Shown piece after piece: positions 15,179 to 38,678 of a stretch of 64,000 bases of DNA. Source of the DNA: a virus (lineage: Duplodnaviria; Caudoviricetes). The stretch is taken from the IMG/VR virus record IMGVR_UViG_3300027749_000034; one strand, given 5' to 3'. Position 1 is the first letter of the stretch. The number at the start of each line of letters is the position of its first letter. The notes under the pieces were generated by a model. The model was given only the letters and a program-made list of their open reading frames with translations. It had not been told where the DNA came from and searched no databases. Made by a program: the position numbers and the translations under genes.

Positions 15179-15203
15179 CAAGCCGATCAAATAAGTATAT
15201 ACT
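15175..15203 (+). promoter_or_regulatory. sigma70-type promoter of tmRNA
   Basis: TTGACA-17-TATACT. Confidence 0.85.
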
Positions 15204-15209
15204 GTAAGT

Positions 15210-15500
15210 TATTGCTGTATGAAGCAAAGAGAAAAGTGTTCTGGACGGGGGTGCGAATCCCCCCAGGTCCACCATAAGCACATAGTTGTCCTAGATGAAA
15301 GAAACCTCTTAGGGCTCTAGTGGGGATTGTGTGCTTTTGATGGGCCTGACCTAGATTCGACAGGGCAACAAGTAACAGAGTGGACAGCACGACAGCGATA
15401 GTCGTAAAAACTAAACAAAAGTAACCGCAAACGACTCACAGTTCGCATTAGCGGCCTAACAGCCACTTAGGGTAAGACATACCTCGTAACAGAAACTCAG
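15210..15500 (+). ncRNA. ssrA: tmRNA, circularly permuted two-piece form
   Basis: T-arm plus CAGGTCC-ACCA (ends 15274) precedes the 5' end GGGCCTG (15342) with G3.U; tag ORF ANDSQFALAA*; ends are approximate. Confidence 0.93.
15427..15459 (+). other. tmRNA proteolysis tag reading frame (ANDSQFALAA*)
   Basis: gca aac gac tca cag ttc gca tta gcg gcc taa. Confidence 0.9.
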
Positions 15501-15528
15501 AAAAGGTTGCTTCGGCAACCTTTTTCTT
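15501..15528 (+). terminator. intrinsic terminator
   Basis: AAAAGGTTGC-TTCG-GCAACCTTTTT. Confidence 0.9.
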
Positions 15529-15576
15529 TATAAGTATTTTTATAATACGAACATTATCACACTAAAGAATATATCA

Positions 15577-23854: not shown

Positions 23855-24532
23855 ATGAAAGTACAAGCGCATCCGGACTATTTTTGCCCTTTATCGTTGA
23901 AGTTACCGCAGACCGCAAAAACCTTCCTACAAGAATTCTTTGTAGATGATTTAAAGGAACAACAATCAAAGAAAAGGCAGTTGGGTTTATATCCACTGCC
24001 TGATTCTACAGCCTTGATTGAATTAAAGGAATTGGTAGATAACTTTTTGGCGCCACTGCAATTGGCGGCCGGTTCGTATGGTGCATTTGCATTGAAAGAG
24101 TCCACGCAAGATGTCAACATACATGTTGACGCCATGCGTCTCAATACCAGACTGAGTTTTTATGAACTTGCAGAAACACCGGGTGTTATCAATTGGTGGC
24201 AAGATGATGGAACAGGATATGAAGCATGGCGACCCAGTTACCTGGGTGGTAGCCCAATCCTTGATTATCGCTTTCCTTGGGTTGATGATTTACAAGCAGG
24301 AAAAAGAACTTGGGATGAAGTCCCCAAGCCTGTATTTGGTACAAGTACAGCAGTACCTAGTGCTTTATTAATGACAGCACTACCACACAATGTATTTCAA
24401 GGGCCAGGCTTTAGAATCACAATCACCTGCCAGATTGTTAACCGTCAAACTCGTTCAGTTGAACACACTTGGCAACAAGTACAACAGCATTTTAACTCCA
24501 TTGCATTGCCTGCCAGTGCATACGAATCGTAG
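23855..24532 (+). CDS. 2OG-Fe(II) dioxygenase-like protein
   Basis: IHVD ... PHNV ... R-I-T (HxD...H plus Arg). Confidence 0.55.
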   Translation: MKVQAHPDYFCPLSLKLPQTAKTFLQEFFVDDLKEQQSKKRQLGLYPLPDSTALIELKELVDNFLAPLQLAAGSYGAFALKESTQDVNIHVDAMRLNTRLSFYELAETPGVINWWQDDGTGYEAWRPSYLGGSPILDYRFPWVDDLQAGKRTWDEVPKPVFGTSTAVPSALLMTALPHNVFQGPGFRITITCQIVNRQTRSVEHTWQQVQQHFNSIALPASAYES

Positions 24533-25295
24533 CATAGCCAGATCCAAAGTAGTCGGAGCCAGACATGAATTTAAACAGCTGGCCATTGTAATTGGGATTG
24601 GCAGTGATTAGTTTTATAGTTGTTTGTGCTACCTCTGCTGATTTTGCAAAGAACACTTTGTTTTTGCCCCACATGATTGGATACAGCAATTTTTCTTGAT
24701 GGGCAATCACAGTGGCCCAAGTGCGTAGCGGTGCACCTGTGCACCAGTCGTCTACAATGTAGATACCACGATCTTTTAGCTTGGGTAACGACTTTCTAAT
24801 GGTGTTGAGATTTTCAGCAACACCGTCCCCGTAGTCATGATGTATAATATCATACTGTTCATCAGCTTCTGCTTCGCTCAGGTAGCAAGTCAAGGACATT
24901 GTCCTGCCAGTCAATTGTTCAGATCTTGTGGCAATCCAGGATTGCATATCTTTGGCAGTAGATAATGTTGCTAACACTTCTATTTCTTCTTGGCTTAAAC
25001 AACGATTAAAGTGATCTGTATACCAAGCACCACTAGAGTTTGTTTCCTTTGCCCCGATAAAGTTCAAATGATCAACACCGGTAAATTTTACACTATTATG
25101 ACCGGTTTCGCACAATGCTTCATTAAATATTGCAAGTCCACCGCCGATGTAAGATCCAAGTTCTAGGAACTTATCAATTTTGGGTAAACTACCAAATAAC
25201 AGCCAACATGCTATGACATCCTCCGGTGGACTTAACATTCCAAGCTTTAGGACATGTTGATAGATGTTGTTTAGATTTTTCCAGGAATAGTCCAC
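24492..25295 (-). CDS. class I SAM-dependent methyltransferase
   Basis: FLELGSYIGG, YDIIHHD, GIYIVDDW; GGAG RBS with GTG start. Confidence 0.8.
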   Translation of the reverse strand: MDYSWKNLNNIYQHVLKLGMLSPPEDVIACWLLFGSLPKIDKFLELGSYIGGGLAIFNEALCETGHNSVKFTGVDHLNFIGAKETNSSGAWYTDHFNRCLSQEEIEVLATLSTAKDMQSWIATRSEQLTGRTMSLTCYLSEAEADEQYDIIHHDYGDGVAENLNTIRKSLPKLKDRGIYIVDDWCTGAPLRTWATVIAHQEKLLYPIMWGKNKVFFAKSAEVAQTTIKLITANPNYNGQLFKFMSGSDYFGSGYATIRMHWQAMQWS

Positions 25296-25317
25296 TTTTT
25301 CTCCAATAAGTATGTGT

Positions 25318-25854
25318 ATGATTGACGACTTCTATGTATACGAAACACCTGACTTTTTAGATCTTCCTTACATTAAAAAACTAGTTATGGACAAGCTTGA
25401 GGCAGAGTTTGTCCTTAAAGGGTATGTGAGAATTGACGTCAGTACCGACGACTATCTAAAATCACTGCAAGAAAGGTTTGTATTCTTGGGTGGTTGGTTG
25501 AACATATATCATACCCCTCCAACAGGGTATATCCCCTTGCACATCGACGGACATCGACTGGCGGCATTCAACATACCAATCAGTGGATGTGATGATACAT
25601 CTGCTACAATTTACTATGAGCCAGTTGACGGCGAGATTGAAAAAGTCTACAAGCCTGACGAACGGCACTACCGAATCACGGGAGAGATGAAAGAGGTTTA
25701 TAGATTTTCATTGAAGCGTCCTGCACTGATTCGCAATGATGTGGCTCACGATGTAAAACGATTTGACTCCACTGATATTAGGATCATTGCCAGTTGGGGA
25801 GTAGCAGGCACCTTTGAAGAGTGCAGAAAAAAATTCAAAGAAATTTTGCCATAA
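25318..25854 (+). CDS. 2OG-Fe(II) dioxygenase-like protein
   Basis: LHIDG..AFNIPI ... AHDV ... RIIAS; TAAGTA at 25307. Confidence 0.6.
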   Translation: MIDDFYVYETPDFLDLPYIKKLVMDKLEAEFVLKGYVRIDVSTDDYLKSLQERFVFLGGWLNIYHTPPTGYIPLHIDGHRLAAFNIPISGCDDTSATIYYEPVDGEIEKVYKPDERHYRITGEMKEVYRFSLKRPALIRNDVAHDVKRFDSTDIRIIASWGVAGTFEECRKKFKEILP

Positions 25855-25858
25855 GAGG

Positions 25859-25887
25859 TAGACTTCTAAGTTAAAAGGATATATAAT
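25859..25887 (+). promoter_or_regulatory. sigma70 promoter of leader/attenuator 1
   Basis: TAGACT-17-TATAAT, ATG 6 nt downstream. Confidence 0.7.
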
Positions 25888-25893
25888 AATACT

Positions 25894-25959
25894 ATGTTAA
25901 ATGTAAAATTGTTACCAGGTAATACAGGACCAGCCACAGAGGATACTCCGAGGCCGTAA
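25894..25959 (+). CDS. putative leaderless leader peptide MLNVKLLPGNTGPATEDTPRP
   Basis: Starts at predicted TSS; ends 23 nt before terminator. Confidence 0.55.
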   Translation: MLNVKLLPGNTGPATEDTPRP

Positions 25960-25982
25960 CTCTACGCATAGTGAGATTACAG

Positions 25983-26013
25983 GCCCTGGAAATAAAAACT
26001 CCGGGGCTTTTTT
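25983..26013 (+). terminator. attenuator-type intrinsic terminator 1
   Basis: GCCCTGGA-9nt-TCCGGGGC-TTTTTT. Confidence 0.85.
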
Positions 26014-26018
26014 ATTGT

Positions 26019-26094
26019 GCGGGCGTAGCTCAGTTGGTAGAGCATTACCTTGCCAAGGTAAATGTCGTCGGTTCGAACCCGATCGCCCGCTCCA
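26019..26094 (+). tRNA. tRNA-Gly(GCC)
   Basis: Cloverleaf, TTACC-TT GCC AA-GGTAA, CCA encoded. Confidence 0.97.
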
Positions 26095-26098
26095 GGCT

Positions 26099-26272
26099 TG
26101 TTGTAGAAATACAACAAAAATAAAGGCAGATAGTTGTTGACAGGAATGAGTAGATAGCATATACTAGTTGAATACTGTAGCAATACAGCAGAAACAGTTT
26201 GAAAAGTGTTGTAGAAATACAACAAAAGAAAGTTAGAAAACGGTTGACATTACGGCATTGTCCGTATATAAT
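26099..26272 (+). promoter_or_regulatory. tandem operator plus sigma70 promoters (rrn P1/P2-like)
   Basis: Operators 26099-116 and 26207-224; TTGACA-17-TATACT (26137-65) and TTGACA-17-TATAAT (26244-72). Confidence 0.85.
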
Positions 26273-26280
26273 AACCAAAC

Positions 26281-26315
26281 ACTACAGCGAAAGTTGTAGT
26301 GATTGTTCTTTAAAA
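26281..26315 (+). promoter_or_regulatory. boxB-like hairpin plus boxA antitermination site
   Basis: ACTACAGC-GAAA-GTTGTAGT then TGTTCTTTAAAA. Confidence 0.7.
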
Positions 26316-26331
26316 ATTTGGTGGCATTTGT

Positions 26332-26406
26332 GCTCGATTCGTCTATCGGTTAGGACATCTGGTTTTCATCCAGGCAAGAGCGGTTCGATTCCGCTATCGA
26401 GTACCA
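26332..26406 (+). tRNA. tRNA-Glu(TTC)
   Basis: Cloverleaf, loop TT TTC AT, CCA. Confidence 0.95.
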
Positions 26407-26615
26407 TATGCAAGAATACTAAGGTTACCTAGACCACTAGGCGACTGGGATGATGGCAGTGCCGACGGGTGCTGGTCAAGTCCAGGAGCATGAAACAGGC
26501 GCAAGCTGGATTTGCGGTGGACAATCTAGGAGTAATGACCGTGCAGGCCTATACGAGACGTTCGTATATGGTAGACATAGATGCACAATGGTTCCTTTAG
26601 TATTCTTACATATGG
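26404..26615 (+). ncRNA. unknown structured RNA enclosed by 21-bp stem
   Basis: 26404-24 pairs 26595-615 with one C/A mismatch; internal hairpins. Confidence 0.6.
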
Positions 26616-26619
26616 TATT

Positions 26620-26705
26620 GCGAGTATGGTGAAATCTGGTAGACACAAGAGACTTAAAATCTCTCGCCGCAAGGTGTCCCGGTTCGACTCCGGGTACTCG
26701 CACCA
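26620..26705 (+). tRNA. tRNA-Leu(TAA)
   Basis: Type II cloverleaf, loop CT TAA AA, CCA. Confidence 0.96.
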
Positions 26706-26779
26706 AAATTAAGGCAATTGGGTTGTCAACCTAATTGGAGGCTAAGGCGTTATTAGTATATGCACTCCAGGAGAACAGC

Positions 26780-26920
26780 ATGTCAAATGATATATTAGCC
26801 CAAGTAAGAGAGATGTTGGATCGTACAAGAGATCCTTTTGAGATCGCGCACAAGTTGCATATTGATCTTGAATTTGTACAACAAGCAATGTCAATTTTAC
26901 TGAACAAAGTGTTAGCCTAA
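26780..26920 (+). CDS. small hypothetical (HTH-like) protein
   Basis: AGGAG RBS; PFEIAHKLHIDLEFVQQAM. Confidence 0.65.
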   Translation: MSNDILAQVREMLDRTRDPFEIAHKLHIDLEFVQQAMSILLNKVLA

Positions 26921-26928
26921 ACAAATTT

Positions 26929-27003
26929 GGTCTGTTCGTATAGAGGTTATTACTGTGGATTGTCTATCCACTTACGGGGGTTCGATTCCCCCACAGACCG
27001 CCA
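26929..27003 (+). tRNA. tRNA-Asp(GTC)
   Basis: Cloverleaf, loop TT GTC TA (U37), CCA. Confidence 0.93.
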
Positions 27004-27009
27004 ATTTTT

Positions 27010-27085
27010 TCCGCCTTAGCTCAGTTGGTAGAGTAGATGACTGTTAATCATTTGGTCCCTGGTTCGAGCCCAGGAGGTGGAGCCA
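27010..27085 (+). tRNA. tRNA-Asn(GTT)
   Basis: Cloverleaf, loop CT GTT AA, CCA. Confidence 0.96.
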
Positions 27086-27122
27086 AGAAAACATCAGTTT
27101 CTTTCATTTTACAAAGGCAATT

Positions 27123-27347
27123 ATGACATACATCAGTCGAGGAGTTGACATTGATACAGATCAATGTGTACAAAATGTTGGAGGCAATCGATTCAACTTG
27201 GTTTTAATTGCCGCGGCAAGAGCCAGGGAAATTAGTCAAAACAATAGAGAAAGTGTTCGCACAGAACATCTCCATACACCAGTAACTGCATTACTTGAAG
27301 TCCAAGATGGTAAGTTGGGGTATGAAGGAATACGAAAAGTTCGTTAA
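27123..27347 (+). CDS. rpoZ: RNA polymerase omega subunit homologue
   Basis: VGGNRFNLVLIAAARAREI ... PVTALLEVQDGK matches omega signature NRFDLVLVAARRARQ...VIALREIEEG. Confidence 0.85.
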   Translation: MTYISRGVDIDTDQCVQNVGGNRFNLVLIAAARAREISQNNRESVRTEHLHTPVTALLEVQDGKLGYEGIRKVR

Positions 27348-27353
27348 GTATAT

Positions 27354-27429
27354 CGCGGGGTACGTCAGTGGTCAGACTGCTAGGCTCATAACCTAGAAGA
27401 CGGAGGTTCGAATCCTTCCCCCGCAACCA
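27354..27429 (+). tRNA. tRNA-fMet(CAT), initiator-like
   Basis: CGCGGGG 5' end with C1xA72 mismatch, loop CT CAT AA. Confidence 0.9.
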
Positions 27430-27430
27430 G

Positions 27431-27624
27431 ACGTTCCGAGTGTCTTCGGATAGTGTGACCCACACGATGAGAAGTAGTGTGACAACTACGGGTGGTAGTC
27501 TTTGAACCGAAAGGCCGCTGGCAATGCGATAACGGAACCTGTCGGGAAGTGGGTGGAAGCCGTGTGTGATGGTGTTGGGGGTTCCTGGCGCTTGATACGG
27601 TACAATTACCACCGGGGTTCGCAG
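27431..27624 (+). ncRNA. unknown pseudoknotted structured RNA
   Basis: GTTCCG/CGGAAC (27433/27533) crosses GGTGGTA/TACCACC (27491/27607); GNRA hairpins. Confidence 0.5.
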
Positions 27625-27696
27625 AGCATATTAAAACACACTCTAACCGCAAGGTGACAAGTGAGCTCATGTTCATGAAGTGTGTTTCAATATGTT
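27625..27696 (+). ncRNA. long-stem hairpin cassette
   Basis: 18-bp stem AGCATATTAAAACACACT/AGTGTGTTTCAATATGTT with one A/C mismatch. Confidence 0.55.
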
Positions 27697-27700
27697 TTTC

Positions 27701-27776
27701 GGGGGTGTAGCTCATTTGGGAGAGCGCCTGCTTTGCAAGCAGGATGTAGCAAGTTCGATCCTTGTCACCTCCACCA
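27701..27776 (+). tRNA. tRNA-Ala(TGC)
   Basis: GGGGGTG acceptor with G3.U70, loop TT TGC AA. Confidence 0.96.
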
Positions 27777-27796
27777 TTATTATAAAGGAAAGTCGT

Positions 27797-27964
27797 ATGC
27801 ACGAAGCTGGTAAGGGCGATAGCCCAAGACCCTACAGCGTTGATTCAAAAACTTACTCAGACAATTGGGACACAATTTTTGGTAAGAAAGACAACAACGA
27901 TAAAAAAGAAATTGTTGATTCTTTGGACAAAAAACCAACAGACAACAATCCTGCGGCTAAGTAA
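27797..27964 (+). CDS. small hypothetical protein
   Basis: AAGGA RBS; GKGDSPRP...NWDTIFGK motif. Confidence 0.7.
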   Translation: MHEAGKGDSPRPYSVDSKTYSDNWDTIFGKKDNNDKKEIVDSLDKKPTDNNPAAK

Positions 27965-27968
27965 GATT

Positions 27969-28409
27969 ATGTTGCACTTGATTCAAACACTGGGGGAAAA
28001 TATACTGGACTTGATCAGTCAAGACCCAGTACGCCCACATATTCCTGCAAATGATAGGATTGGCAACAACAAAGAAATTTTTGTACTCAAAAATGAAGAC
28101 GACTCAGTTCGTGCAATCACCTGCGTAAGTTATCAAAACAGTATTCCCAAGTCTGAACTGGATTTGTTTATTTCAGATGTAGAACCAGACACAGCAGTTT
28201 TTTATACAATTTGGAGTTACAAGCCCGGAGCAGGCCGTCAGTTGATTTTTGATGCAGTTGACTACATCAAAAAAAATAAACCAAGTATAACAAAGTTTGT
28301 TACACTAAGTCCTAAAACAGAAATGGCCAAGCGTTTTCATACCAAGAACGGTGCTATTATTTTTAGAGAAAACGAAGAGTCAACAAACTACGAATATTTG
28401 CATCCTTAA
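27969..28409 (+). CDS. hypothetical protein (possible GNAT-like fold)
   Basis: QDPVRPHIP, FYTIWSYKPGAGRQLI, TLSP..EMAKRFH; stop codon lies inside tRNA-Val. Confidence 0.7.
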   Translation: MLHLIQTLGENILDLISQDPVRPHIPANDRIGNNKEIFVLKNEDDSVRAITCVSYQNSIPKSELDLFISDVEPDTAVFYTIWSYKPGAGRQLIFDAVDYIKKNKPSITKFVTLSPKTEMAKRFHTKNGAIIFRENEESTNYEYLHP

Positions 28410-28475
28410 CTCAGTTGGTAGAGTTCCTCGCTTACACCGAGGCTGTCGGCGGTTCGAGCCCGTCAGGATGTACCA
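28400..28475 (+). tRNA. tRNA-Val(TAC)
   Basis: Cloverleaf, loop CT TAC AC, CCA. Confidence 0.95.
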
Positions 28476-28497
28476 AACAACATAAGTAAATTTCAAC

Positions 28498-28573
28498 GCC
28501 CTTGTAGCTCAGCTGGTAGAGCACCGCACTTGTAATGCGGGGGTCCCGTGTTCGATTCATGGCGGGGGCACCA
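28498..28573 (+). tRNA. tRNA-Thr(TGT)
   Basis: Cloverleaf, loop CT TGT AA, CCA. Confidence 0.95.
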
Positions 28574-28586
28574 TTTTTAATCACCC

Positions 28587-28835
28587 ATGTGGGAATACCT
28601 AGTAACCTTTTTTGCGATCTTTTTACTTGACATTGTTTACACCTACTACTTGCGGTGTGTGGCCAATGACAATGTGTTAGGTGCAAGTTTTTGGTCAATA
28701 GCCTGTTATATTCTAGGAAGTGTGGCAGTTATAAATTACACAACCAATCATTGGTTAATGATTCCAGCCGTGGCAGGTGCGTTTTGCGGCACCTGGGTTG
28801 GAATGAAAATTAAGAAGAAACAATTCGGAGTGTAG
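28587..28835 (+). CDS. small multi-pass membrane protein
   Basis: Three hydrophobic helices; stop codon lies inside tRNA-Pro. Confidence 0.7.
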   Translation: MWEYLVTFFAIFLLDIVYTYYLRCVANDNVLGASFWSIACYILGSVAVINYTTNHWLMIPAVAGAFCGTWVGMKIKKKQFGV

Positions 28836-28902
28836 CGCAGTCTGGTAGCGCACCTGGTTTGGGACCAGGGGGTCCAAGGTTCGAATCCTTGTACTCCGAC
28901 CA
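28826..28902 (+). tRNA. tRNA-Pro(TGG)
   Basis: CGGAGTG acceptor, loop TT TGG GA, CCA. Confidence 0.96.
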
Positions 28903-29103
28903 AGTACCCCGGGCACCTCTGCCCGTTATACAAGAGGGGGATATTAGCAAACCCATAGACGCTACGGTGCATTGGATCTACCGCAAGGCCCATTTACGGC
29001 GACTTGAGAAATCACAAAGGCAGGAACTGTACTGTCTAAATAGAAAAATAGTTGGACGGGGTAACCACCCAGTCTGGGGCTCTTGTGGTGAGAGTAGCCA
29101 GAC
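28903..29103 (+). ncRNA. unknown structured RNA
   Basis: Nested hairpins GTCTGG/CCAGAC, GTCTAA/TTGGAC, GGGT/ACCC, CC-GCAA-GG. Confidence 0.45.
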
Positions 29104-29233
29104 ACTTTATAAAAGCCGTTTGAGTAGCTACAATGGAACACCGAAATACTTCTCAATACTAGTCAGTAGAAGGACCGGCCATGAAGAGTAGGGCTACCGC
29201 GAATTCAAGCGTCACAGACGGCCTCTATAAAGT
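29104..29233 (+). ncRNA. long-stem-enclosed structured RNA
   Basis: 18-bp closing stem 29104-21/29216-33 with A/C mismatches, abutting tRNA-Gly. Confidence 0.5.
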
Positions 29234-29307
29234 GCGGGATTAGTTTAATGGTAAAACTACAGATTTCCAATCTGTTGTCGTCAGTTCGATTCTGACATTC
29301 CGCTCCA
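29234..29307 (+). tRNA. tRNA-Gly(TCC)
   Basis: Cloverleaf, loop TT TCC AA, U73-CCA. Confidence 0.95.
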
Positions 29308-29329
29308 GACTTTTAGCATAAATATTGGT

Positions 29330-30202
29330 ATGAACCCAGACTTTACTAATCTAGCCTATGCCAAAGTCAATTTGAACTTTGATGCTGAATTATTTGCCAC
29401 CGAATACGATCGGCACATATTGCCACATGGAATTTCCATTTGCAATAGTCTTGAAACTTTAAACACATCTGTTGCACTCAATGAGTATTGGGGCATGGTT
29501 CCTCCAGATGAATATACCAAAGCAGATGTGTGGCGACAACCAGGACCTGCTACTACATTAGAATATATAAAACAACAACGCCCACAGTGGAAAATGGTGC
29601 AGTTAATGGGATTAGATATCACAGAAATAACTGACCCATTACTGTTGCGATTTTCCAAGCAAGGGGGACCTAGTGTTCGAAACGAAACACTGGATCCAAA
29701 GTATAAATTTTCAATCAAACCTTATTTTGCTGATTTGCAAATATACAAATGGATCATTGAAAATATTCCGTTACAGGAAATTAGAAGTTTACATTGTGTT
29801 AGCATTGAAGCAGGCGGGCTGGCAACAATACATCGAGATGTAAAAGGTCTATATGCTGGTATCAACAACAGCAGTGGATCGGACAATCGCATCTATAAAA
29901 ATGGTTATGTAATTATCAATTTAAATATCAGTAGCGGAGGTGGTCCACTATGGTGGTGCCTGGACGGGCCAGGTGTATTAGATCCGCAAAAATCAGATGA
30001 TCAAGTTTATTTGACAAACGATTATTTTTTACATGCAGTTCCATTAATGACTAGTCGACGCCGCCAAATTAGAATCATGGGCAAGCCAAAACCAGAGTTA
30101 TGGAACATGTTTGAATCAACGGGCATGATTACACTTCCAGACGACTACCAGTACAACGGCGGATTTGGCATTGAGTTCTTACCAAAAAATGACAGCAAAT
30201 AA
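29330..30202 (+). CDS. 2OG-Fe(II) dioxygenase-like protein (paralogue A)
   Basis: IHRD ... LHAV ... RRQIRI; TAAATA at 29319. Confidence 0.6.
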   Translation: MNPDFTNLAYAKVNLNFDAELFATEYDRHILPHGISICNSLETLNTSVALNEYWGMVPPDEYTKADVWRQPGPATTLEYIKQQRPQWKMVQLMGLDITEITDPLLLRFSKQGGPSVRNETLDPKYKFSIKPYFADLQIYKWIIENIPLQEIRSLHCVSIEAGGLATIHRDVKGLYAGINNSSGSDNRIYKNGYVIINLNISSGGGPLWWCLDGPGVLDPQKSDDQVYLTNDYFLHAVPLMTSRRRQIRIMGKPKPELWNMFESTGMITLPDDYQYNGGFGIEFLPKNDSK

Positions 30203-31073
30203 ATTTTCAAACATTGCCTATGCAAAGGTAAACCTGGCGTATGATCGTGAACTTTTTATCAAAGAATATGATGAGATTATATTACCACACGGTCACCCAA
30301 TTTCAAACAATTTGAATGCGGTTGGTTCTACTGCACCATTGAATAAGGTATGGGGAATGATACCACCAGAATTATACAATAAAGGTGATATCTACATGCA
30401 AGAAGGAAATGCCAACGCAATGAAATACATTGTGCGAGAACATCCAGGTTGGTTAATGGTGCAATTAATGCAAGCTGATCTGACTCAGGTTCCTGAGTCT
30501 AAGAAAGAAATTCTTAAGAAATTTTCTTTTAGAGGTGGACCCAGTTTTAGAAATGAAACATTGGATCTTGATTTTTCAATTAAACAACCTTTTGAACACA
30601 TGCAAATATGGAAATGGATACAAAATAATTTACCATTTAAAAAAATTAACAGCATTCATTGTGTGAGTTTAGAGCCTGGCGGGTTTTCAATCATACATAG
30701 AGATATGAAAGGCTTGTATAATCCATTGTCTAGTGCAACAACCAACAGACTTTACAAAGAAGGGTTCGTAGTACTTGCGTTGAATTTGTCAGATGGTGGA
30801 TCTCCTTTATATTGGTCGCTGGACGGCGCAGATGCAGTCAATTGTTTTAAAGCCAATGATCCACTGTATCTTTCAAGTGATTACTTCATGCACGGAGTAG
30901 GAATAGTAACCAGTCGCCGACGACAAGTCCGTGTTGCTGGTATTCCAGGTCCTGAATTATGGGATCTATTAGACAAAGATTCTATCATTGACCTGGGTGA
31001 ACATTACAAATATGATTCTTCCTGGGCCAGAGATTATGCAGAAAAAGAATTACTAAATCGAGAATCTAAATGA
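30189..31073 (+). CDS. 2OG-Fe(II) dioxygenase-like protein (paralogue B, tandem duplicate)
   Basis: Aligns end to end with A (AYAKVNL, GGPSxRNETLD, IHRD, H, SRRRQ). Confidence 0.6.
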   Translation: MTANKFSNIAYAKVNLAYDRELFIKEYDEIILPHGHPISNNLNAVGSTAPLNKVWGMIPPELYNKGDIYMQEGNANAMKYIVREHPGWLMVQLMQADLTQVPESKKEILKKFSFRGGPSFRNETLDLDFSIKQPFEHMQIWKWIQNNLPFKKINSIHCVSLEPGGFSIIHRDMKGLYNPLSSATTNRLYKEGFVVLALNLSDGGSPLYWSLDGADAVNCFKANDPLYLSSDYFMHGVGIVTSRRRQVRVAGIPGPELWDLLDKDSIIDLGEHYKYDSSWARDYAEKELLNRESK

Positions 31074-32584
31074 ATGTTGTACTATTAAATTCTGGTCCAA
31101 GAATTAATGAATTTACAGTTTACAGAACACTGGGTCCTTACAAGCTGGCACATGCACTGAGAAAAATTGGCATTTCTACAGTGGTAATTGATCACGTCAG
31201 ATGGTTAGATGATAACACTTTAACACAACTGCTGGATAAGTTTGTAACAGATGATACACTTTGCATTGGTATCAGCACCACATTTATATACCAACAGTTT
31301 GATACACCAGTTTTTCCGCCGGGCCTGCAAACTGCAATTGAAAAACTTGCTCAAAAATTTCCCAGGGCAAAAATTGTGTTGGGAGGACCTTACACGCAAA
31401 GATTTAAAGTAGAAGTACACCCTTCGTTTACTAAAGAGATTGATGCAATATTTGAAGAGTACTCTGAAGATACATTTGTAGATTACATACGCTCAATAAA
31501 AGAATCTAATATCACACTAATGCCACCATTTACTCATGAATTATGGAATGGCAAAGGAGTATTGTGTTTTAAAAAGCCCAAGATAGAACGATTTAACATT
31601 GAAACAAGTGCATTCAGATTTGTCGACGATGATGTAATTATGCCCAATGAGACATTGCCATTGGAAGTCAGCCGCGGTTGTATTTTTAAATGCAAATTCT
31701 GCAATCATTTGTTGTTGGGCAGAGGCAAGCTGGATTATCTAAGAGATTTTGAATTACTAAAAGATGAGCTAATGCACAATTATGAAAAGTGGGGAATAAC
31801 AAACTATTATATCATTTGCGATACATTCAATGACACTGAATATAAAATGAAAGCCTGGTATGATATGGTAGCAAGCTTACCTTTTAAAATCAAGTATACT
31901 TCATATTTGCGAGCAGACTTGTTGGATAAATTTCCAGATGTACCTTACATGCTACAAGAATCTGGGTTGCTGGCTGGTTTTCATGGAATAGAAAGCCTGG
32001 GCGAACAGGCTTCAGGCATCATTGGCAAAGGTTGGAGTGGCAAAAGTGCAAGAGAATATATACCAAAATTGTACCATGATATCTGGAATAAAAAAGTAGC
32101 GCAGACGCTCAGTTTCATTGTTGGATTAACCGGCGACACAAGAGAATCTTTGCTGGACACAGCACACTGGTTTGTTGACAACGATCTTTATAACATAACC
32201 TGGTCGTCATTGGGTCTTAGTAATCTAGGGGCTGTGCCCGGTCGACACGCCAGCGAATTTGAAAAAAATGCAACCAAATATGGATATGAATTTGTTGAAT
32301 TTATAGCTGATAATCGAAGAAAGACCAAGGGGTATTATTGGAAGACTGATTATTGGACTCTGCGAGATGCTGACAAATATGTGCAAGAAGTATTACGACC
32401 GGTGACCAACAAATCAAATGCGCCACATGGCAGTTGGACACTTTTGCAGTTTATGCAATATCCTGGTGTGACCGAAGAAAATTTGACCAAAGAAAATTCT
32501 AAAAAAATTGTAGCTGACCTTGATCTACGCCTGCAACAAAAATTATGGATCAATGCGTATGTAGGAAAAATGCTTGCTCTTTAA
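31070..32584 (+). CDS. cobalamin-binding radical SAM protein
   Basis: N-terminal B12-binding-like domain (LGPYKLA...IGISTTF...VLGG), SRGCIFKCKFC. Confidence 0.85.
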   Translation: MNVVLLNSGPRINEFTVYRTLGPYKLAHALRKIGISTVVIDHVRWLDDNTLTQLLDKFVTDDTLCIGISTTFIYQQFDTPVFPPGLQTAIEKLAQKFPRAKIVLGGPYTQRFKVEVHPSFTKEIDAIFEEYSEDTFVDYIRSIKESNITLMPPFTHELWNGKGVLCFKKPKIERFNIETSAFRFVDDDVIMPNETLPLEVSRGCIFKCKFCNHLLLGRGKLDYLRDFELLKDELMHNYEKWGITNYYIICDTFNDTEYKMKAWYDMVASLPFKIKYTSYLRADLLDKFPDVPYMLQESGLLAGFHGIESLGEQASGIIGKGWSGKSAREYIPKLYHDIWNKKVAQTLSFIVGLTGDTRESLLDTAHWFVDNDLYNITWSSLGLSNLGAVPGRHASEFEKNATKYGYEFVEFIADNRRKTKGYYWKTDYWTLRDADKYVQEVLRPVTNKSNAPHGSWTLLQFMQYPGVTEENLTKENSKKIVADLDLRLQQKLWINAYVGKMLAL

Positions 32585-32608
32585 GCGCAAATCACATATA
32601 ATATACAC

Positions 32609-33127
32609 ATGCCTTGGATTGAAAACATACCTTTAGAAAATGTAGCCACCGGACGTCATCATGATTGCGGTGACAACAGTATGCTGATCCAAATTTCGGA
32701 TCATGACATGGCGTTTCCTACTCCCAAACATCACTTCAAAGAAGTACACAAATTTACATTTTTGGACATTGAAGAAGATGGCATGACCAACACAGGTGAT
32801 GGTAGAACCATTGACATGAGCGAGTTTGCCATTACAGATGCACAGGCCGCAGAGCTTGTGCGCTTGTTGCAACATGCCTTTGAAAATCGCATGAATGTTG
32901 TGGTTCACTGTCATGCCGGTGTTTGCCGTTCAGGTGCTGTGGCAGAAGTTGGTGTTATGATGGGCTTTGCAGATTGCGAGCGTTTTCGTATTCCAAACCT
33001 GTTGGTCAAGCATAAAATGATGCGGGTGCTTGGATGGACCTACGATGAGCAGGAAAAGTCCTACGATGTAAACGGTACTGTTAACGAATGGGGCTTTATA
33101 CTGCCCAATCATGACGGAGATATTTAA
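32609..33127 (+). CDS. protein-tyrosine-phosphatase-like (Cys phosphatase)
   Basis: VHCHAGVCRSG CX5R loop. Confidence 0.85.
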   Translation: MPWIENIPLENVATGRHHDCGDNSMLIQISDHDMAFPTPKHHFKEVHKFTFLDIEEDGMTNTGDGRTIDMSEFAITDAQAAELVRLLQHAFENRMNVVVHCHAGVCRSGAVAEVGVMMGFADCERFRIPNLLVKHKMMRVLGWTYDEQEKSYDVNGTVNEWGFILPNHDGDI

Positions 33128-33306
33128 TGGATTGGTTACGCTATAGCGGCCTATGGATAACTGTAATTTTCAACCCATTCCATTGGCGCATTTCTTACTG
33201 CATTGATTCAACCCAGGCCGAATGGCCAAGCCCCAGTCGCCGAGAAATTGTAATACAGGTCATCATGCTGTCATTCAGGCTAGTTGTCGACAATGGTGAC
33301 TGGTAA
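33127..33306 (+). CDS. small hypothetical protein (not in ORF track)
   Basis: MDWLRYSGLWITVIFNPFHW..., TAATG overlap. Confidence 0.55.
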   Translation: MDWLRYSGLWITVIFNPFHWRISYCIDSTQAEWPSPSRREIVIQVIMLSFRLVVDNGDW

Positions 33307-33314
33307 GTATCGTT

Positions 33315-34277
33315 ATGAAATACGGCCTAGACGAAAACGACAAATATTGGATTGAATATACCAGCCTGCCCAGACCCATTGGAAACATGCGGCAAGAATT
33401 GGATTTGGCCTGTCAGCGCATTGCCAACGAAAGGAAAACAATAATCAGTCTAAGCAGTGGTTTAGACAGCCAAGTTGTACTGCATAGCTTTATACAACAA
33501 GGCTTGCCACATGAATGTGCGTTTATGTATCATCCTGGCTTTAATGATTCTGAATTTCAAAATATTAAAATCTTAGAGAAAAAATACAACTTTAAATGCA
33601 ATATCATTGACATTGATCCAATGGCTATAAAAGATGAAATAGAAGCGTTGTCGACTGCAACAAGGATACCACCACAACATCATATCAAAGCAAAATTTCT
33701 AGACCAACTTGATCAAGCTTGTCATGTGCTAGAAGGTCCAGAAAACCCAGACCTATTTGTAAACAACAACAATTTAAAATTGTCAGCCGCCGATGAGGGT
33801 ACTTGGCGCATGATGGAAAGTTACAATGCCATTGACACAACATCAGCTTGGTTCCATGCAAATCGACAAAACCCCACTGTGTATTTAGATAGACGAAGTT
33901 TGCATCAGGAATTTGCCATCAGCATGCTGATTGACGACATTGCAGTGGCCTATAGGCATGCATTTCCATATATTAAAGAAAACGGCATGGTAGATCCAAA
34001 AACTGGAAAAGCACCATTGTGGATCATCTGGGGCTGGGGCCTGTATATCAAGCCTATTCAATTTGGCAAGTATTGGGGCAATGAGCTAGAATATTTTCCA
34101 AAATTTGCTGTGCAAAAAGAAATAGATTATGTAGCAACTCCCAAAGTAATACACGACTATCTGGCACGAGTAATTTTCATCGACCTAGACCGGCACTTGG
34201 AGTTGATGTGCGATTATGGATCAAATCGCACAATAAAGCATACGCAAACATATATACAAAATGCAAAAAACATTTAA
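33315..34277 (+). CDS. PP-loop (adenine nucleotide alpha-hydrolase) protein
   Basis: ISLSSGLDS motif. Confidence 0.65.
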   Translation: MKYGLDENDKYWIEYTSLPRPIGNMRQELDLACQRIANERKTIISLSSGLDSQVVLHSFIQQGLPHECAFMYHPGFNDSEFQNIKILEKKYNFKCNIIDIDPMAIKDEIEALSTATRIPPQHHIKAKFLDQLDQACHVLEGPENPDLFVNNNNLKLSAADEGTWRMMESYNAIDTTSAWFHANRQNPTVYLDRRSLHQEFAISMLIDDIAVAYRHAFPYIKENGMVDPKTGKAPLWIIWGWGLYIKPIQFGKYWGNELEYFPKFAVQKEIDYVATPKVIHDYLARVIFIDLDRHLELMCDYGSNRTIKHTQTYIQNAKNI

Positions 34278-35469
34278 TAAAAATCTAGGTTATTATGTAT
34301 GTAATGATATTGATTTTCATTCTAAAATTGAAGCATGTATATATGGAACAAAAGTCAACCAGCCAGTACGCTGGATGTTCAACAACGCAGTTTTTAACTC
34401 ACACAATTGGGCAGTGGAACCTAGTGAAACATTAGATCAGTTGTATGATTCCCGTGCAAGACAGCTTCGTGAAAAGTATGACTATGTTATATTAAGCTAC
34501 TCGGGCGGCGCAGACAGCAACAACATCTACGAAAGCTTTCGTAGACAAGGCCTGCACATTGATGAAATTGTAGTTAATACAATGACAAAGGCCAGCGAAA
34601 AGTTTATTACAGTAGATGCAAACAGTAAAAATTCTTACAATGGTCCAGAAAGCGAACATCAATTGCATTTGTTGCCGCGCTTACGCACAATCGAAAATGA
34701 AATGCCTCGAACCAAGATTCGTATCTTTGATCTAAGTGACACATTATTTGAAAGCCTGGCCAACACAGATGAAAGTTGGGTATTGAATCAAAAGGAAGGT
34801 CTTAATCCAATTGGTATTACACGATTTAACTATCTGAGTTTTGATGAAGTCAAGCGTGATTTTGACCGCGGCAAGAGTACTTGTTTAATTACAGGAGTTG
34901 AAAAGCCCAGAGTTATAATTCGAGAAAACAATTTATTAATGCGGTTCAACGATCGTAGTGCCAATATCAACACAGTGGCAGAGCATATCAAAGAATATGA
35001 AAACTGCACAGTGGAATATTTTTATTGGGCTCCAGAAAGTGTGCGTATGTTGATCAAGCAAGGACATGTTATCAAGAAATATCTAGAGGCGTTCCCTGCT
35101 CAACAAGAATTTTGGCTAGAACACAGAGTTACTCCAGCGTTGACACGCCTGATGCACGAGCGTGTGTTAAGAAATCTGCTGTACACAACCTGGCAAGAAG
35201 AGTGGTTTCAGGCAGACAAAGCAGTGAGTGATTGGTACAGTGAGTTTGATCGTTGGTTCATTGATCATTACAAAGACACGTCAGCTTGGCGAAATTGGCA
35301 TGCTGGTATTGACTATGTTAAGAACAATTTAAAACCATTTTTAAAATCAAATGGACGCGGAATTCCAGACGGTTTAAAGCCAGTGGCACACATTTATAAT
35401 CTTGGACCAATCAAATTAGCAACCAACACATGGCTAATTGGAGAAAGCGGACAAAACAGACCACCATGA
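34261..35469 (+). CDS. PP-loop (adenine nucleotide alpha-hydrolase) protein
   Basis: LSYSGGADS motif, GVEKP. Confidence 0.72.
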   Translation: MQKTFNKNLGYYVCNDIDFHSKIEACIYGTKVNQPVRWMFNNAVFNSHNWAVEPSETLDQLYDSRARQLREKYDYVILSYSGGADSNNIYESFRRQGLHIDEIVVNTMTKASEKFITVDANSKNSYNGPESEHQLHLLPRLRTIENEMPRTKIRIFDLSDTLFESLANTDESWVLNQKEGLNPIGITRFNYLSFDEVKRDFDRGKSTCLITGVEKPRVIIRENNLLMRFNDRSANINTVAEHIKEYENCTVEYFYWAPESVRMLIKQGHVIKKYLEAFPAQQEFWLEHRVTPALTRLMHERVLRNLLYTTWQEEWFQADKAVSDWYSEFDRWFIDHYKDTSAWRNWHAGIDYVKNNLKPFLKSNGRGIPDGLKPVAHIYNLGPIKLATNTWLIGESGQNRPP

Positions 35470-36107
35470 CATATAAAAACTACCATATTCCAATGCCCAA
35501 GTTCAATCCAACAGAGGCCGAACAGAAATGGGCATTGGAGAATATTGCACCCGAGTTGGAGCCAGCATTGAAATTGATCAAAGGTGCATTTGACAGAGTT
35601 GACGTGCCGCAAGAGTTATTTAGACCATGGCCTCAGCGTGATGCAGTACTGGCGCACTTTGATGAATTAAAATTGGAATTTAAAAGATTTGCCGGTTTTA
35701 TTTCACATCCTGGTCAATGCCCCAAGAGTGCTCATATAGATGCACTTGAACGCGGTGTAGCAATGGTAGCCCGTTTTAATATTCCCATACAAGGATTAAG
35801 TCCAGTCACACTGGATTGGTGGAATGACGGAATTGACAGCGATCGAATTGGCGAGCGTGTGTTCACTGAACTTAGAAATGGCGTAGAAAAACCAGCCTAC
35901 AGCTTTAAATCTCTAATAGATGACTGGGGTACCACCCCAGCGTTTACGGTGCTAGATCCAGGAGCATGTTGGAACAGGACTGAAATTGCACACAGAGCAC
36001 AAAGCCCCAACTGTGCTGTCAGCAGGATTCAAATCACAGCAGAAGTTAAACAACAAATTGCCTGGACTGAATTGGTTGCCAGACTAGAACGCCTGGGCTA
36101 CTGTTGA
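35466..36107 (+). CDS. 2OG-Fe(II) dioxygenase-like protein
   Basis: AHID..RFNIPI ... AHRA ... RIQIT. Confidence 0.58.
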   Translation: MTYKNYHIPMPKFNPTEAEQKWALENIAPELEPALKLIKGAFDRVDVPQELFRPWPQRDAVLAHFDELKLEFKRFAGFISHPGQCPKSAHIDALERGVAMVARFNIPIQGLSPVTLDWWNDGIDSDRIGERVFTELRNGVEKPAYSFKSLIDDWGTTPAFTVLDPGACWNRTEIAHRAQSPNCAVSRIQITAEVKQQIAWTELVARLERLGYC

Positions 36108-36170
36108 CCCATTGACAATCTGTGGCGATTGCTGTATAATAGCAGTAATCGCTTTTCTTTTGGAGAAATT

Positions 36171-36581
36171 ATGTTAGAATGTTTGATCTTAGGTGACAGT
36201 ATTGCAGTAGGCACACAGCAATTCCGACAGGAATGTGCGCTGATAGGCAAAGGTGGAATCAACACAGCACAATGGAATCGTATGTATCGGAGTCGAGATC
36301 TAACTGCCCGCAATGTTATTATTAGCTTGGGTACAAACGATCACGCCGGTGTCAATACCTTTCGGGAATTGATGGACATGCGTATGCGTGTGGATGCTGA
36401 TCATGTGTTTTGGATCTTGCCGCCTTGCAATGACAAATTCTGCAAACCCGCAGTGAATGAAGTAGTTGAACTTATTGCTCGAAACTTTAATGACACTGTT
36501 ATTGGCACTAAAAAACTACAAACAGATGCCATACACCCCAGCTGGTCAGGGTACCAAGAACTGGGCCAAAAGACAAAATAA
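36171..36581 (+). CDS. SGNH/GDSL hydrolase
   Basis: GDSIA, SLGTND, DAIHP blocks. Confidence 0.85.
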   Translation: MLECLILGDSIAVGTQQFRQECALIGKGGINTAQWNRMYRSRDLTARNVIISLGTNDHAGVNTFRELMDMRMRVDADHVFWILPPCNDKFCKPAVNEVVELIARNFNDTVIGTKKLQTDAIHPSWSGYQELGQKTK

Positions 36582-36646
36582 CTGCGGTCCAAAATAAATA
36601 GTCCATACAACTTAGAGTTGAATTTAAGTTAACATGGGTTATTTCA

Positions 36647-37696
36647 ATGACAATCAGATCGTCAGGCGCACTGCCTGCCAGTGAAATCAATGCCGAACTC
36701 GGGCTCGCTTCAACCGCACAAATTGGCATTGGTGGAGCAGTACCTAGAGGCCTAGCTGGCGTTGCGTCAGGTGCTATTGCATTCAGCAACTTTTATGGCA
36801 AGGCCAATCTGACACCGGGCAATGGCGGTCTATTCACAACATCAACCACATTTACAGTACCCAGCTCATCTGGCGGAACACTCAAAATATTAAGCATTGG
36901 TGGTGGTGGTGGCGGTGGCGGTGGAACAAATCGTTGTGCTGTTTATCTGTATGTGGGTGGCGGAGGAGGTGGCTCCGGAGAAATCACATTAAAAACAGTG
37001 ACCGTGACACCTGGTACAGTTTTGACAATCACAGTTGGTGCCGCAGGTTCAGCTGGCGGACAGCGTGATGGACAATATGGCGGCGGTGCCGCAGGTGGCA
37101 CAGGCGGTACTACCACTGTCAAAAACGGTGCCACTATTTTGACCGGTGCAGGTGGCGGAGGAGGTGGCGCACTTTCTCAACAGCCGTCGTCGTCACCTAT
37201 TCTTGACAACTATAGTGCTCACTTTAACCAAAGCGTTATCAATACAGCGGCCAGCACAATTTTAGCGGCCGGAGGCGCAGGTGGTTCAGGTGGCGGAGGT
37301 GGTTCAGGCTACACAAATCCGTTTGCCAGCGTGGCCGGCAATGGCACTTCTTATGCAGGTACCACCTACATGGGCGGCGGCGATGGCGGCCGTGGCTACA
37401 CCATCGATACCACCAGTGGCGTGGCTACACCATACGGCACAGGTTCTGCAGGTCGTGGCGGACGAGGAAATGTTGGCCCACAAATCCAGCTGGACAAGGG
37501 TTACTATTATTTCACGCCACAAAATAGCTGTAAAGGCGGTTCGCCTGCCGCAGGAAACTACATTGCTCAAGCAGGAAGCACCTATGGAGGTGGTGGTGGT
37601 GGTGGTGGTATGGACAACGAATATTGCGGTACCACTGGTAAAGCCACTGGTGTTGCTGGATCGGGCGGCGCTGTATTCATCTGGTGGGGTTATTGA
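36647..37696 (+). CDS. glycine-rich tail-fibre/adhesin-like protein
   Basis: SSG..xS.INAELG...FSNFYGK N-terminal module, polyglycine tracts, C-terminal G.GAVFIWW. Confidence 0.7.
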   Translation: MTIRSSGALPASEINAELGLASTAQIGIGGAVPRGLAGVASGAIAFSNFYGKANLTPGNGGLFTTSTTFTVPSSSGGTLKILSIGGGGGGGGGTNRCAVYLYVGGGGGGSGEITLKTVTVTPGTVLTITVGAAGSAGGQRDGQYGGGAAGGTGGTTTVKNGATILTGAGGGGGGALSQQPSSSPILDNYSAHFNQSVINTAASTILAAGGAGGSGGGGGSGYTNPFASVAGNGTSYAGTTYMGGGDGGRGYTIDTTSGVATPYGTGSAGRGGRGNVGPQIQLDKGYYYFTPQNSCKGGSPAAGNYIAQAGSTYGGGGGGGGMDNEYCGTTGKATGVAGSGGAVFIWWGY

Positions 37697-37697
37697 C

Positions 37698-38090
37698 ATG
37701 AGCGCACCAGCTATCACAATTGGATGTGTGTCCAATCTCTACAGCAGACAAATGCACTTTGTCAATGCAGGCGATGTTGAACTGGGTCATACTCACTTGT
37801 ATGATCATTTCACATTGTTGGCCGCTGGTAGTCTTAGAGTCACTGTAGATGGTGCTGATAATGTGTTTACTGCACCACATATGATTTTCATTAAAAAAGA
37901 CAAAAATCATAGATTAGAAGCACTGGAGAACAACACAGTGGCCTACTGTATACATGCTCTTAGAAACAATGACGGATCAGGTGATATAATGGATCCCAAC
38001 ATGATACCCATGATACCACCTGATGGTGGTACCTATCAACCAGGCTCCGAAGGCCTAGTGACTCCGAGTTTACCCGATTGGATGAAATAA
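37698..38090 (+). CDS. cupin-fold protein
   Basis: GHTHLYDH...F.APHMIFI...H cupin metal motifs. Confidence 0.7.
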   Translation: MSAPAITIGCVSNLYSRQMHFVNAGDVELGHTHLYDHFTLLAAGSLRVTVDGADNVFTAPHMIFIKKDKNHRLEALENNTVAYCIHALRNNDGSGDIMDPNMIPMIPPDGGTYQPGSEGLVTPSLPDWMK

Positions 38091-38093
38091 CAA

Positions 38094-38153
38094 ATGGCAC
38101 TACAATCATCCGGAGCCATGAATGCCAGTGATATCAATGCCGAACTCACATAA
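38094..38153 (+). pseudogene. truncated copy of the Gly-rich adhesin N-terminus
   Basis: MALQSSGAMNASDINAELT* aligns with MTIRSSGALPASEINAELG. Confidence 0.65.
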
Positions 38154-38203
38154 TGTTGTAAAAATACAACACCGGTTGACAAACTGATTTTTTGTGCTAT
38201 AAT
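38154..38203 (+). promoter_or_regulatory. operator plus sigma70 promoter
   Basis: TGTTGTAAAAATACAACA then TTGACA-16-TATAAT. Confidence 0.8.
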
Positions 38204-38223
38204 AGTCTTTTAGAAGGATTTAT

Positions 38224-38445
38224 ATGACCAACAAACAACGAGCTGTATTTGAAACTGTCAAGATGGTTGTAATTTTTATTGTAATGGGTCTGACATTCAG
38301 TACCATCATACAAACTGGCTATGGCGTATACTTGGGTATTGCCATGGTTGCACTTGGCGTGGTGTATGCATTGATCATGATGTATGAAATGAAGCTGGGC
38401 CAAATTGAATCAAAACAAAGACTAGACGAACTATCAAAAAATTAA
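38224..38445 (+). CDS. small two-TM membrane protein
   Basis: Two hydrophobic helices, AAGGA RBS. Confidence 0.7.
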   Translation: MTNKQRAVFETVKMVVIFIVMGLTFSTIIQTGYGVYLGIAMVALGVVYALIMMYEMKLGQIESKQRLDELSKN

Positions 38446-38472
38446 TAATTTTAGCCTTAACGCAACAAGAGG

Positions 38473-38501
38473 TTGACAACAAGGCTAAGTAAGTGTACAA
38501 T
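38473..38501 (+). promoter_or_regulatory. sigma70 promoter of leader/attenuator 2
   Basis: TTGACA-17-TACAAT. Confidence 0.8.
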
Positions 38502-38508
38502 GATTACT

Positions 38509-38628: not shown

Positions 38629-38649
38629 AGTAATCAGACCGTTTACTTG

Positions 38650-38678
38650 AACCCTGGACTAACACTCCGGGGTTTTTT
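38650..38678 (+). terminator. attenuator-type intrinsic terminator 2
   Basis: AACCCTGGA-7nt-TCCGGGGTT-TTTT; stem identical to terminator 1. Confidence 0.85.

Follow-up and report, generated by a model that had tools for sequence, protein, structure and literature searches.

The Escherichia coli trpL leader and the his, leu, thr, ilv and pheA leaders carry a short promoter-proximal open reading frame (ORF), the end of which lies within the first two of four RNA segments; these segments pair as a 1:2 hairpin, a 2:3 antiterminator or a 3:4 intrinsic terminator, and the position of the ribosome picks the fold. Transcription of transfer RNA (tRNA) genes is set at their promoters, through growth-rate and stringent control. 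Our literature searches found no leader-peptide attenuator reported before tRNA genes, in cells or in phages, and one paper mentions a tRNA operon only in passing (PMC3082878). Here we describe a leader with the same four segments in front of a tRNA-Gly(GCC) gene in a 64,000-nucleotide (nt) stretch, hereafter the window, that is part of an uncultured phage (Caudoviricetes; IMG/VR record IMGVR_UViG_3300027749_000034). The element is compact, at about 160 nt, and combines a promoter, a 21-codon upstream ORF (uORF) and two alternative hairpins. On the sequence evidence set out below we consider it rather likely that the element attenuates transcription through a ribosome-mediated leader peptide and thereby controls how much transcription from its own promoter passes into tRNA-Gly(GCC) and further into the first of two tRNA arrays.

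Among the trp-type leaders those of ilvGMEDA and thr are the closest to the phage leader, which would likewise sense several amino acids together. Unlike all of them, the phage leader is predicted to be leaderless, and it is without a Shine-Dalgarno sequence and without tandem regulatory codons; its stop codon lies within segment 2, and it is phage-encoded, with tRNAs rather than biosynthetic enzymes downstream. A leaderless leader ORF within a transcription attenuator is also known from Sinorhizobium meliloti trpL, where the 5′ end of the attenuator RNA is the ATG of the leader peptide (PMC7298713) and the terminated leader, rnTrpL, is a stable small RNA (PMC7298713, PMC6614838). That system differs from the phage leader in that Trp is sensed via Trp codons and the controlled gene is trpE(G). 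The polycysteine short ORFs of mycobacteria are leaderless too, and ribosome pausing on the codons of one amino acid resets the downstream RNA structure (bioRxiv 10.1101/834739). They resemble the phage leaders as leaderless sensory short ORFs of a design common to many loci, but they act at translation, by exposing a ribosome-binding site, use runs of a single codon and precede genes of cysteine metabolism.

T-box riboswitches share the function proposed here, since tRNA supply is read through a choice between antiterminator and terminator. They differ in making direct contact with tRNA by way of Stem I and the T-box bulge, in their length (more than 200 nt, against about 120 nt for the phage leader) and in controlling aminoacyl-tRNA synthetase and amino-acid genes. 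An Rfam search of 24500-44500 (E ≤ 1) returned no T-box, only tRNAs and chance plastid matches. A UGGA in the terminator arm can pair with the 3′ UCCA of tRNA-Gly, but it sits in a helix, not in a bulge, and the leader is too short, so a T-box reading was rejected. The original prediction for this locus, which had been made from the DNA of the window alone, had drawn a parallel with TnaC, a short leader ORF whose product, like the window peptide, ends in Arg-Pro-stop. TnaC works with Rho-dependent termination and a conserved Trp/Asp/Pro arrest motif. The phage leader has an intrinsic terminator and an antiterminator, and its C-terminus is not conserved: depending on the clade of relatives (see below) the peptide ends in RP, QA, GA, VV, GV or RG. 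With no conserved Pro-stop motif across clades, a TnaC-type arrest peptide was discarded and the proposed likeness falls away.

The features of the element are collected in Table 1. The promoter, the ORF of 21 codons and a terminator whose end lies 5 nt short of tRNA-Gly(GCC) are all where they had been predicted to be. A 180-codon gene upstream of the attenuator ends at 25854, and the ATG of the uORF is the seventh base after the -10 box. No Shine-Dalgarno sequence is present upstream of either this ORF or that of the paralogous attenuator in Table 1; such sequences are present at ordinary genes in the window. Since 5 nt alone (ATTGT), with no promoter among them, separate the T run from the tRNA, tRNA-Gly is served by no other promoter. 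The runs that contain this stretch, of both RNA and DNA, derive from lakes and other fresh water. RNA-library contigs, one of them beginning at 25890, bridge the terminator and run into and past tRNA-Gly. These contigs, which may include DNA and provide no measure of expression or of RNA ends, are a weak hint, compatible with a transcript start close to the ATG and with common read-through.

Table 1. Coordinates of the leader features in the window (position 1 is its first letter).
Feature	Position	Strand	Details
Sigma-70-type promoter	25859-25864 (-35), 25882-25887 (-10)	+	TAGACT, 17-nt spacer, TATAAT; 10/12 match
uORF, predicted leaderless	25894-25959	+	21 codons, MLNVKLLPGNTGPATEDTPRP; TAA at 25957-25959
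Segment 1:2 hairpin	25933-25954	+	codons 14-17 with codons 18-21; candidate anti-antiterminator or pause hairpin
Antiterminator (segments 2:3)	25947-25990	+	25947-25965 with 25971-25990; 19 pairs
Intrinsic terminator (segments 3:4)	25982-26013	+	25982-25990 with 26000-26008; 9-nt A-rich loop; T6 at 26008-26013
tRNA-Gly(GCC), proposed regulated gene	26019-26094	+	ARAGORN; Rfam tRNA 71.2 bits
Paralogous attenuator heading the second tRNA region	38473-38680	+	TTGACA/TACAAT promoter, antiterminator, same terminator module

Relatives of the locus were gathered by searches with the upstream protein and by DNA patterns. GenBank phages queried with the region matched in the tRNA genes alone and included no cultured close relative. 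Among the matches listed, the relatives of the window, one of them a contig of 285 kilobases, provide 14 distinct leader versions that fall into four clades (A-D), with upstream proteins of 72-96% identity. All 14 distinct homologues have TATATAAT, then 6 nt, then ATG; all retain a frame of 20-22 codons, with early stops in the other two frames, and in all of them a TAA or TGA lies within the 5′ strand of the antiterminator, followed by the same terminator and by tRNA-Gly(GCC). The promoter's GGATATATAAT is invariant in all relatives, and the -35 box is TTGACA or TTGACT in the other clades. A pattern that did not require the ATG returned no ATG-less homologue among the matches listed. The uORF changes length in frame, by the loss of one codon in C1 and of one in D and by hexamer repeats. 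A scan of metagenomes added two near-identical C1 variants, again among the matches listed; two further candidates, L019 and L168, were chance matches and were removed. Kept in 14 distinct relatives and recurring as a paralogue within the window, the arrangement goes beyond chance. Conservation of the uORF had been named in advance as a check on the prediction, and it is borne out in the ATG, the frame, the length and the position of the stop.

The terminator stem has nine pairs and is GC-rich, with GCCCTGGA (25983-25990) pairing with TCCGGGGC (26000-26007) at its core and a folding energy of -15.6 kcal/mol (z = -3.6). A consensus scan for terminators missed it because the loop is 9 nt and the scan allows 3-8. 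Across clades the energy ranges from -11.8 to -15.7 kcal/mol, and the stem shows compensatory changes between clades. The antiterminator had been proposed as a pairing of 9 nt between TCCGAGGCC (25947-25955) and GGCCCTGGA (25982-25990). That pairing is present, with eight of nine bases paired, one of them as G-U, but it forms only the base of a hairpin of 19 pairs and the antiterminator is far longer than had been thought. It folds at -19.4 kcal/mol in the window (z = -4.2) and at -19.4 to -25.0 kcal/mol over the clades, in every one of which it is found (z = -4.2 to -6.7); in each case none of 200 shuffled sequences folded as well. Its 5′ strand consists of the last four uORF codons, the stop codon and the next few bases, and its 3′ strand takes in all nine bases of the 5′ arm of the terminator. 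Because the antiterminator uses that arm wholly, the two hairpins cannot coexist. The inner helix varies by clade (GGCCGTAA/TTAC.GGCC, GGCTTGATC/GATCAAGCC and GGTTTAAT/ATTAAGCC), and RNAalifold recovers the hairpin.

The 1:2 hairpin has an energy of -7.7 kcal/mol in the window and of -13.1 to -16.1 kcal/mol in clades C and D. When the leader was folded before segment 4, the antiterminator core was the best fold in all homologues tested. The free full leader adopted the terminator state as its best fold in the homologues of the masking test; in clade C1 the free full-length leader retains the antiterminator. Masking of segment 2, which mimics a ribosome at the stop codon, gave the terminator fold, and masking of approximately codons 7-16 gave the antiterminator, or a fold that invades the terminator stem, in four of the five homologues tested. 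Conservation extends to the start and frame of the uORF, to the placing of the stop within a hairpin and to the alternative hairpins, which is consistent with the predicted scheme in which the uORF sets the choice between antiterminator and terminator. A long-range stem in the window's minimum-energy fold, ACTATG at the 5′ end with CATAGT after the stop, is not conserved in other clades and was set aside.

A further line of evidence is the composition of the peptides. The window contains 27 tRNA genes (ARAGORN) plus a permuted transfer-messenger RNA (tmRNA). The first array (26019-29307) serves G, E, L, D, N, M, A, V, T and P, and the second (39099-43583), headed by the paralogous attenuator, serves Y, S, M, R, C, K, H, F, Q, I, W and L. 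The Y of the second array comes from a tRNA-Tyr(GTA)-like gene (39099-39183) whose variable arm is long and which Rfam detects (35.3 bits) but ARAGORN missed; with this gene both arrays jointly cover all 20 amino acids. The uORF of the first attenuator (uORF1) has 15 residues unique to the amino acids of the first array and 2 unique to those of the second, and that of the paralogue (uORF2, 39 codons, starting with ACTATG at 38509) has 9 and 25, respectively (Fisher P = 5e-5 for uORF1 vs uORF2). The bias is specific to the reading frame, at 15:2 in frame vs 5:11 and 7:12 in the other two (nucleotide shuffles, P ≤ 1e-4), and this frame-specific bias is present in all clades.

The match between peptide and tRNAs extends to leaders of unrelated sequence. 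In L261, from another phage lineage (minus strand, 2400-2600), a TTGACA/TATACT promoter, 6 nt and an ATG introduce an unrelated peptide, MMNRNANTFIVIPSTPRWCGCFCGST, directly before tRNAs for W, P, C, M, T, S and G; 14 of its 25 residues are in this tRNA set (P = 0.003), and the other frames give 5 and 6. Over 17 leader groups, peptides match their own downstream tRNAs above shuffled pairings (mean z 1.1, permutation P about 0.001). The composition tests agree in direction across independent sequence families. Clade C adds a variant, an extra unit before the tRNA-Gly attenuator (L007 3579-3728; also L008 and L011) with a TTGACA/TATACT promoter, an ATG 7 bases after the -10 box and a leaderless 14-codon ORF, MMTHFSIAGSISIR. 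This ORF contains three ATA codons and precedes a 92-nt tRNA with the anticodon UAU and a long variable arm; at an ATA frequency of 1.3% of codons, three of them before a UAU tRNA have P = 6e-4. The unit is without a T run, and its leader forms base pairs with the first half of the tRNA, on the 5′ side (-22.2 kcal/mol, z = -3.7); the unit may be a processing-level version of the same idea.

Narrower versions of codon sensing did not hold up. The rare AGG codon that the original prediction had offered as a sensor is not conserved. Dedicated sensing of tRNA-Gly(GCC) was rejected because, although GGY occurs in every variant, its position varies and about 67% of random 20-codon ORFs have one. A third candidate leaderless ORF, after a promoter at 22064, lies inside a coding region and was dropped.

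The terminator defines a wider family. Its module (CCNNGGA, an A-rich loop, CTCCNNGG and a T run) is present at two sites in the window, 25984 and 38652, and in at least 119 IMG/VR viral contigs. Contexts of the module were classified among the matches listed, and all counts in this paragraph have that scope. The leaderless-uORF class, defined as a -10 box, 5-9 bases, ATG and an ORF of 12-60 codons ending 5-45 nt before the terminator, has 47 contexts; a further 27 contexts lie at the end of a long gene. In a pre-terminator fold the terminator arm is paired upstream in 36 of 68 short-ORF contexts (the 47 leaderless plus 21 other short-ORF contexts) vs 2 of 27 gene-end contexts (P = 2e-5), and in the examples inspected its partner is the end of the short ORF. 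The antiterminator is thus largely confined to the uORF copies of the module. Linkage to tRNAs divides along the same line: among short-ORF leaders with enough downstream sequence, 38/40 are followed on the same strand by a tRNA no more than 1.5 kb away (median 224 nt), vs 1/20 gene-end copies (P = 2e-12). Since tRNA linkage and antiterminator pairing both split by class, the combination of leaderless short ORF, antiterminator and terminator specifically heads phage tRNA arrays. Together with the frame-specific composition match, these class differences favour, at the level of sequence, the attenuation that had been predicted.

The module, conserved A-rich loop included, also closes a long gene at L209, L212, L239 and some 25 further loci; the gene product terminates in ...GFKLTT, and these copies are without an antiterminator. 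The conserved loop at such sites suggests a further role for the hairpin, for example as a protein-binding or processing site.

What is observed is a conserved anatomy, a pair of hairpins that exclude each other, an association with tRNA arrays and a match in composition; from these we infer a start site, translation of the uORF, a rule that ties ribosome position to fold and the signal sensed. Host RNA polymerase would start at, or a few bases from, the ATG at 25894 and so produce a leaderless messenger RNA for a 21-codon test peptide. Segment 1 would be formed by codons 14-17, segment 2 by codons 18-21 with the stop and the next bases, segment 3 by 25971-25990 and segment 4 by 26000-26008 plus the T run, with 2:3 as the strong antiterminator that consumes the 5′ arm of the 3:4 terminator. 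A ribosome at the last codons or at the stop would cover segment 2, so that 3:4 forms and terminates transcription 5 nt short of the tRNA. One delayed at approximately codons 9-14 would cover segment 1 and free segment 2, so that 2:3 forms and polymerase enters the tRNA genes. The footprints used here follow general knowledge of the size of the ribosome. Codons 9-14 of the window encode Gly, Asn, Thr, Gly, Pro and Ala, and in every clade this stretch holds amino acids of the first array. Because the peptide is made almost only of amino acids served by the array behind it, slow decoding of the codons served by that array would be the likely signal, and output of phage tRNAs would be raised when those tRNAs are short.

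Several observations weigh against this model. Under a simulated stall, the minimum-energy fold of the window's own leader stays the terminator. The covariation in related phages that had been suggested as a check did not materialise, as a column-wise test over 7 distinct sequences was not significant: three pairs had changed on both sides, a number reached by 62 of 500 shuffles. This null result arises in part because bulges move from clade to clade and throw the columns out of register, and the shift remained after realignment with a covariance model. The uORF peptides of relatives are only 57-81% identical, and variable columns are spread 9:9:11 over the three codon positions (counted by eye in the alignment). 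The peptide sequence thus appears hardly selected, with no clear purifying selection, a pattern also expected of a non-coding RNA. Weak selection on the peptide sequence is usual for leader peptides. A stop-free run of 20 codons in a few lineages is, moreover, only weakly unlikely by chance. The uORF has no tandem run of one regulatory codon of the kind seen in the trp, his or leu leaders, and the position of the Gly codon that the downstream tRNA reads varies across clades.

The surroundings of the leader also count against the model. Two strong promoters, at 26137 and 26244, lie directly 3′ of tRNA-Gly and feed the remaining array, so only tRNA-Gly is wholly dependent on read-through; this fits poorly with a peptide that samples the entire array. 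Clades B, C and part of D carry about 30 extra nt after the terminator with a TAGAAT box, which may be a bypass promoter. Finally, the composition tests were partly framed after the data had been seen, and related loci are not independent.

Of the competing explanations, the one that survives best, though we regard it as unlikely, accepts the switch but makes it independent of translation. The choice of fold would be set by an RNA-binding protein of phage or host, by polymerase speed, by nucleotide levels or by RNA; the open frame would be a by-product of conserved RNA, and the terminated leader of about 120 nt may act as a small RNA, as the S. meliloti attenuator RNA, which works in trans, illustrates (PMC7298713). 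Constraint at the RNA level is indeed apparent in the many invariant third codon positions (TTACCAG, CAGCC, GAGGNTACTCC), in the even spread of variable columns over codon positions in the by-eye count, and in the terminator loop conserved across at least 119 loci. What such a by-product would not predict is an amino-acid bias that is frame-specific and for which base composition does not account, nor that uORF content follows the downstream tRNAs across unrelated leaders. The distance from the -10 box to the ATG is fixed in both attenuators of the window and in L261 despite otherwise unrelated sequences, the stop always falls within the 5′ strand of the antiterminator even though TAA and TGA interchange, and indels are in frame.

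A constitutive structural leader is less probable still. Here the hairpins would serve RNA stability or processing by RNase P or RNase E, and the terminator would be a fixed, unregulated partial brake that keeps tRNA-Gly at a low level. The neighbouring leader of tRNA-Glu (26244-26331), which combines a promoter with a 5′ hairpin and a T-rich tract and lacks an ORF, provides a precedent, and the RNA-library contigs that span the terminator are compatible with a partial brake. Every clade retains, however, a pair of mutually exclusive hairpins comparable in strength, as well as the position of the ORF relative to both, and a structural leader leaves the match in composition between uORF and downstream tRNAs unexplained. 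The weakest alternative, a stand-alone micro-gene whose small peptide has its own function, with tRNA-Gly reached by leaky termination or read-through from upstream genes, can draw on a conserved ORF with a fixed start, on the retained motifs MLN..LL and E(D/G)T and on a complete promoter-to-terminator unit, but is very improbable given the low peptide identity, substitutions not biased towards synonymous ones, the 38/40 units that lie directly before tRNAs among the matches listed, the lack of another promoter for tRNA-Gly in the window, and the placing of the last codons and stop in a terminator-competing hairpin that is unneeded at a plain gene end and largely absent from the gene-end copies.

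Other features of the window and its relatives were recorded alongside the attenuators. The tRNA-Glu leader has a 12/12 promoter, a hairpin near its 5′ end (CACTACAGCGAAAGTTGTAGTG) and a T-rich tail, is conserved in relatives, and may be a second, ORF-free kind of promoter-proximal brake. In the clade D relative L202 a tRNA with a four-base anticodon (ttac; ARAGORN) is found at 4323-4397, the site that tRNA-Glu occupies in other clades. Some tRNA genes of the window are set apart by spacers of 210-330 nt, at 26407-26619, 27430-27700, 28903-29233 and 39444-39654, with long inverted repeats at their two ends (for example CCATATGCAAGAATACTAAGG ... CCTTTAGTATTCTTACATATGG). The spacers match nothing in Rfam, and RNA-library contigs cover 26426-26599 within the first. 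These spacers look like unknown structured RNAs inside the array.

The palindrome GTTGTA-N4-TACAAC occurs in 8 copies in the window vs 0.26 expected by chance, all on the + strand (16026, 26100, 26208, 38155, 60610, 60644, 61209 and 63985). Most of the copies checked lie between a few and about 25 nt upstream of a strong TTGACA/TATAAT promoter. It is absent at both attenuator promoters (25859 and 38473) and conserved in relatives L001, L004 and L198, and it may be an operator or activator site that marks a separate promoter class. The permuted two-piece tmRNA (15182-15550, tag ANDSQFALAA) lies directly at a strong promoter, at 15175. Two-piece tmRNAs are typical of alphaproteobacteria, some betaproteobacteria and cyanobacteria, and this one may hint at the host.

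We conclude that the element applies ribosome-mediated attenuation, so far as its sequence indicates, to phage tRNA genes, within a family that is widespread and apparently undescribed, and that these phages probably adjust tRNA production to the speed at which ribosomes decode. A broader generalisation can be offered tentatively, as possible but short of an even chance: in large lake phages every tRNA array would have at its head a leaderless test peptide encoded by the very codons which that array serves, providing codon-specific feedback. If this is true, slow decoding would flip the antiterminator and raise transcription of exactly the tRNAs of that array, and a widespread family, with the module on at least 119 contigs, would keep viral translation capacity steady when host tRNAs are depleted or cleaved. 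The matched sets of peptides and tRNAs over unrelated leaders represent a natural variant series. Should the attenuation model hold, it would constitute a direct feedback from decoding speed to tRNA synthesis, would explain how the large tRNA sets of phages are regulated, and would give a testable link to the proposed compensation by phage tRNAs for loss of host tRNAs during infection.

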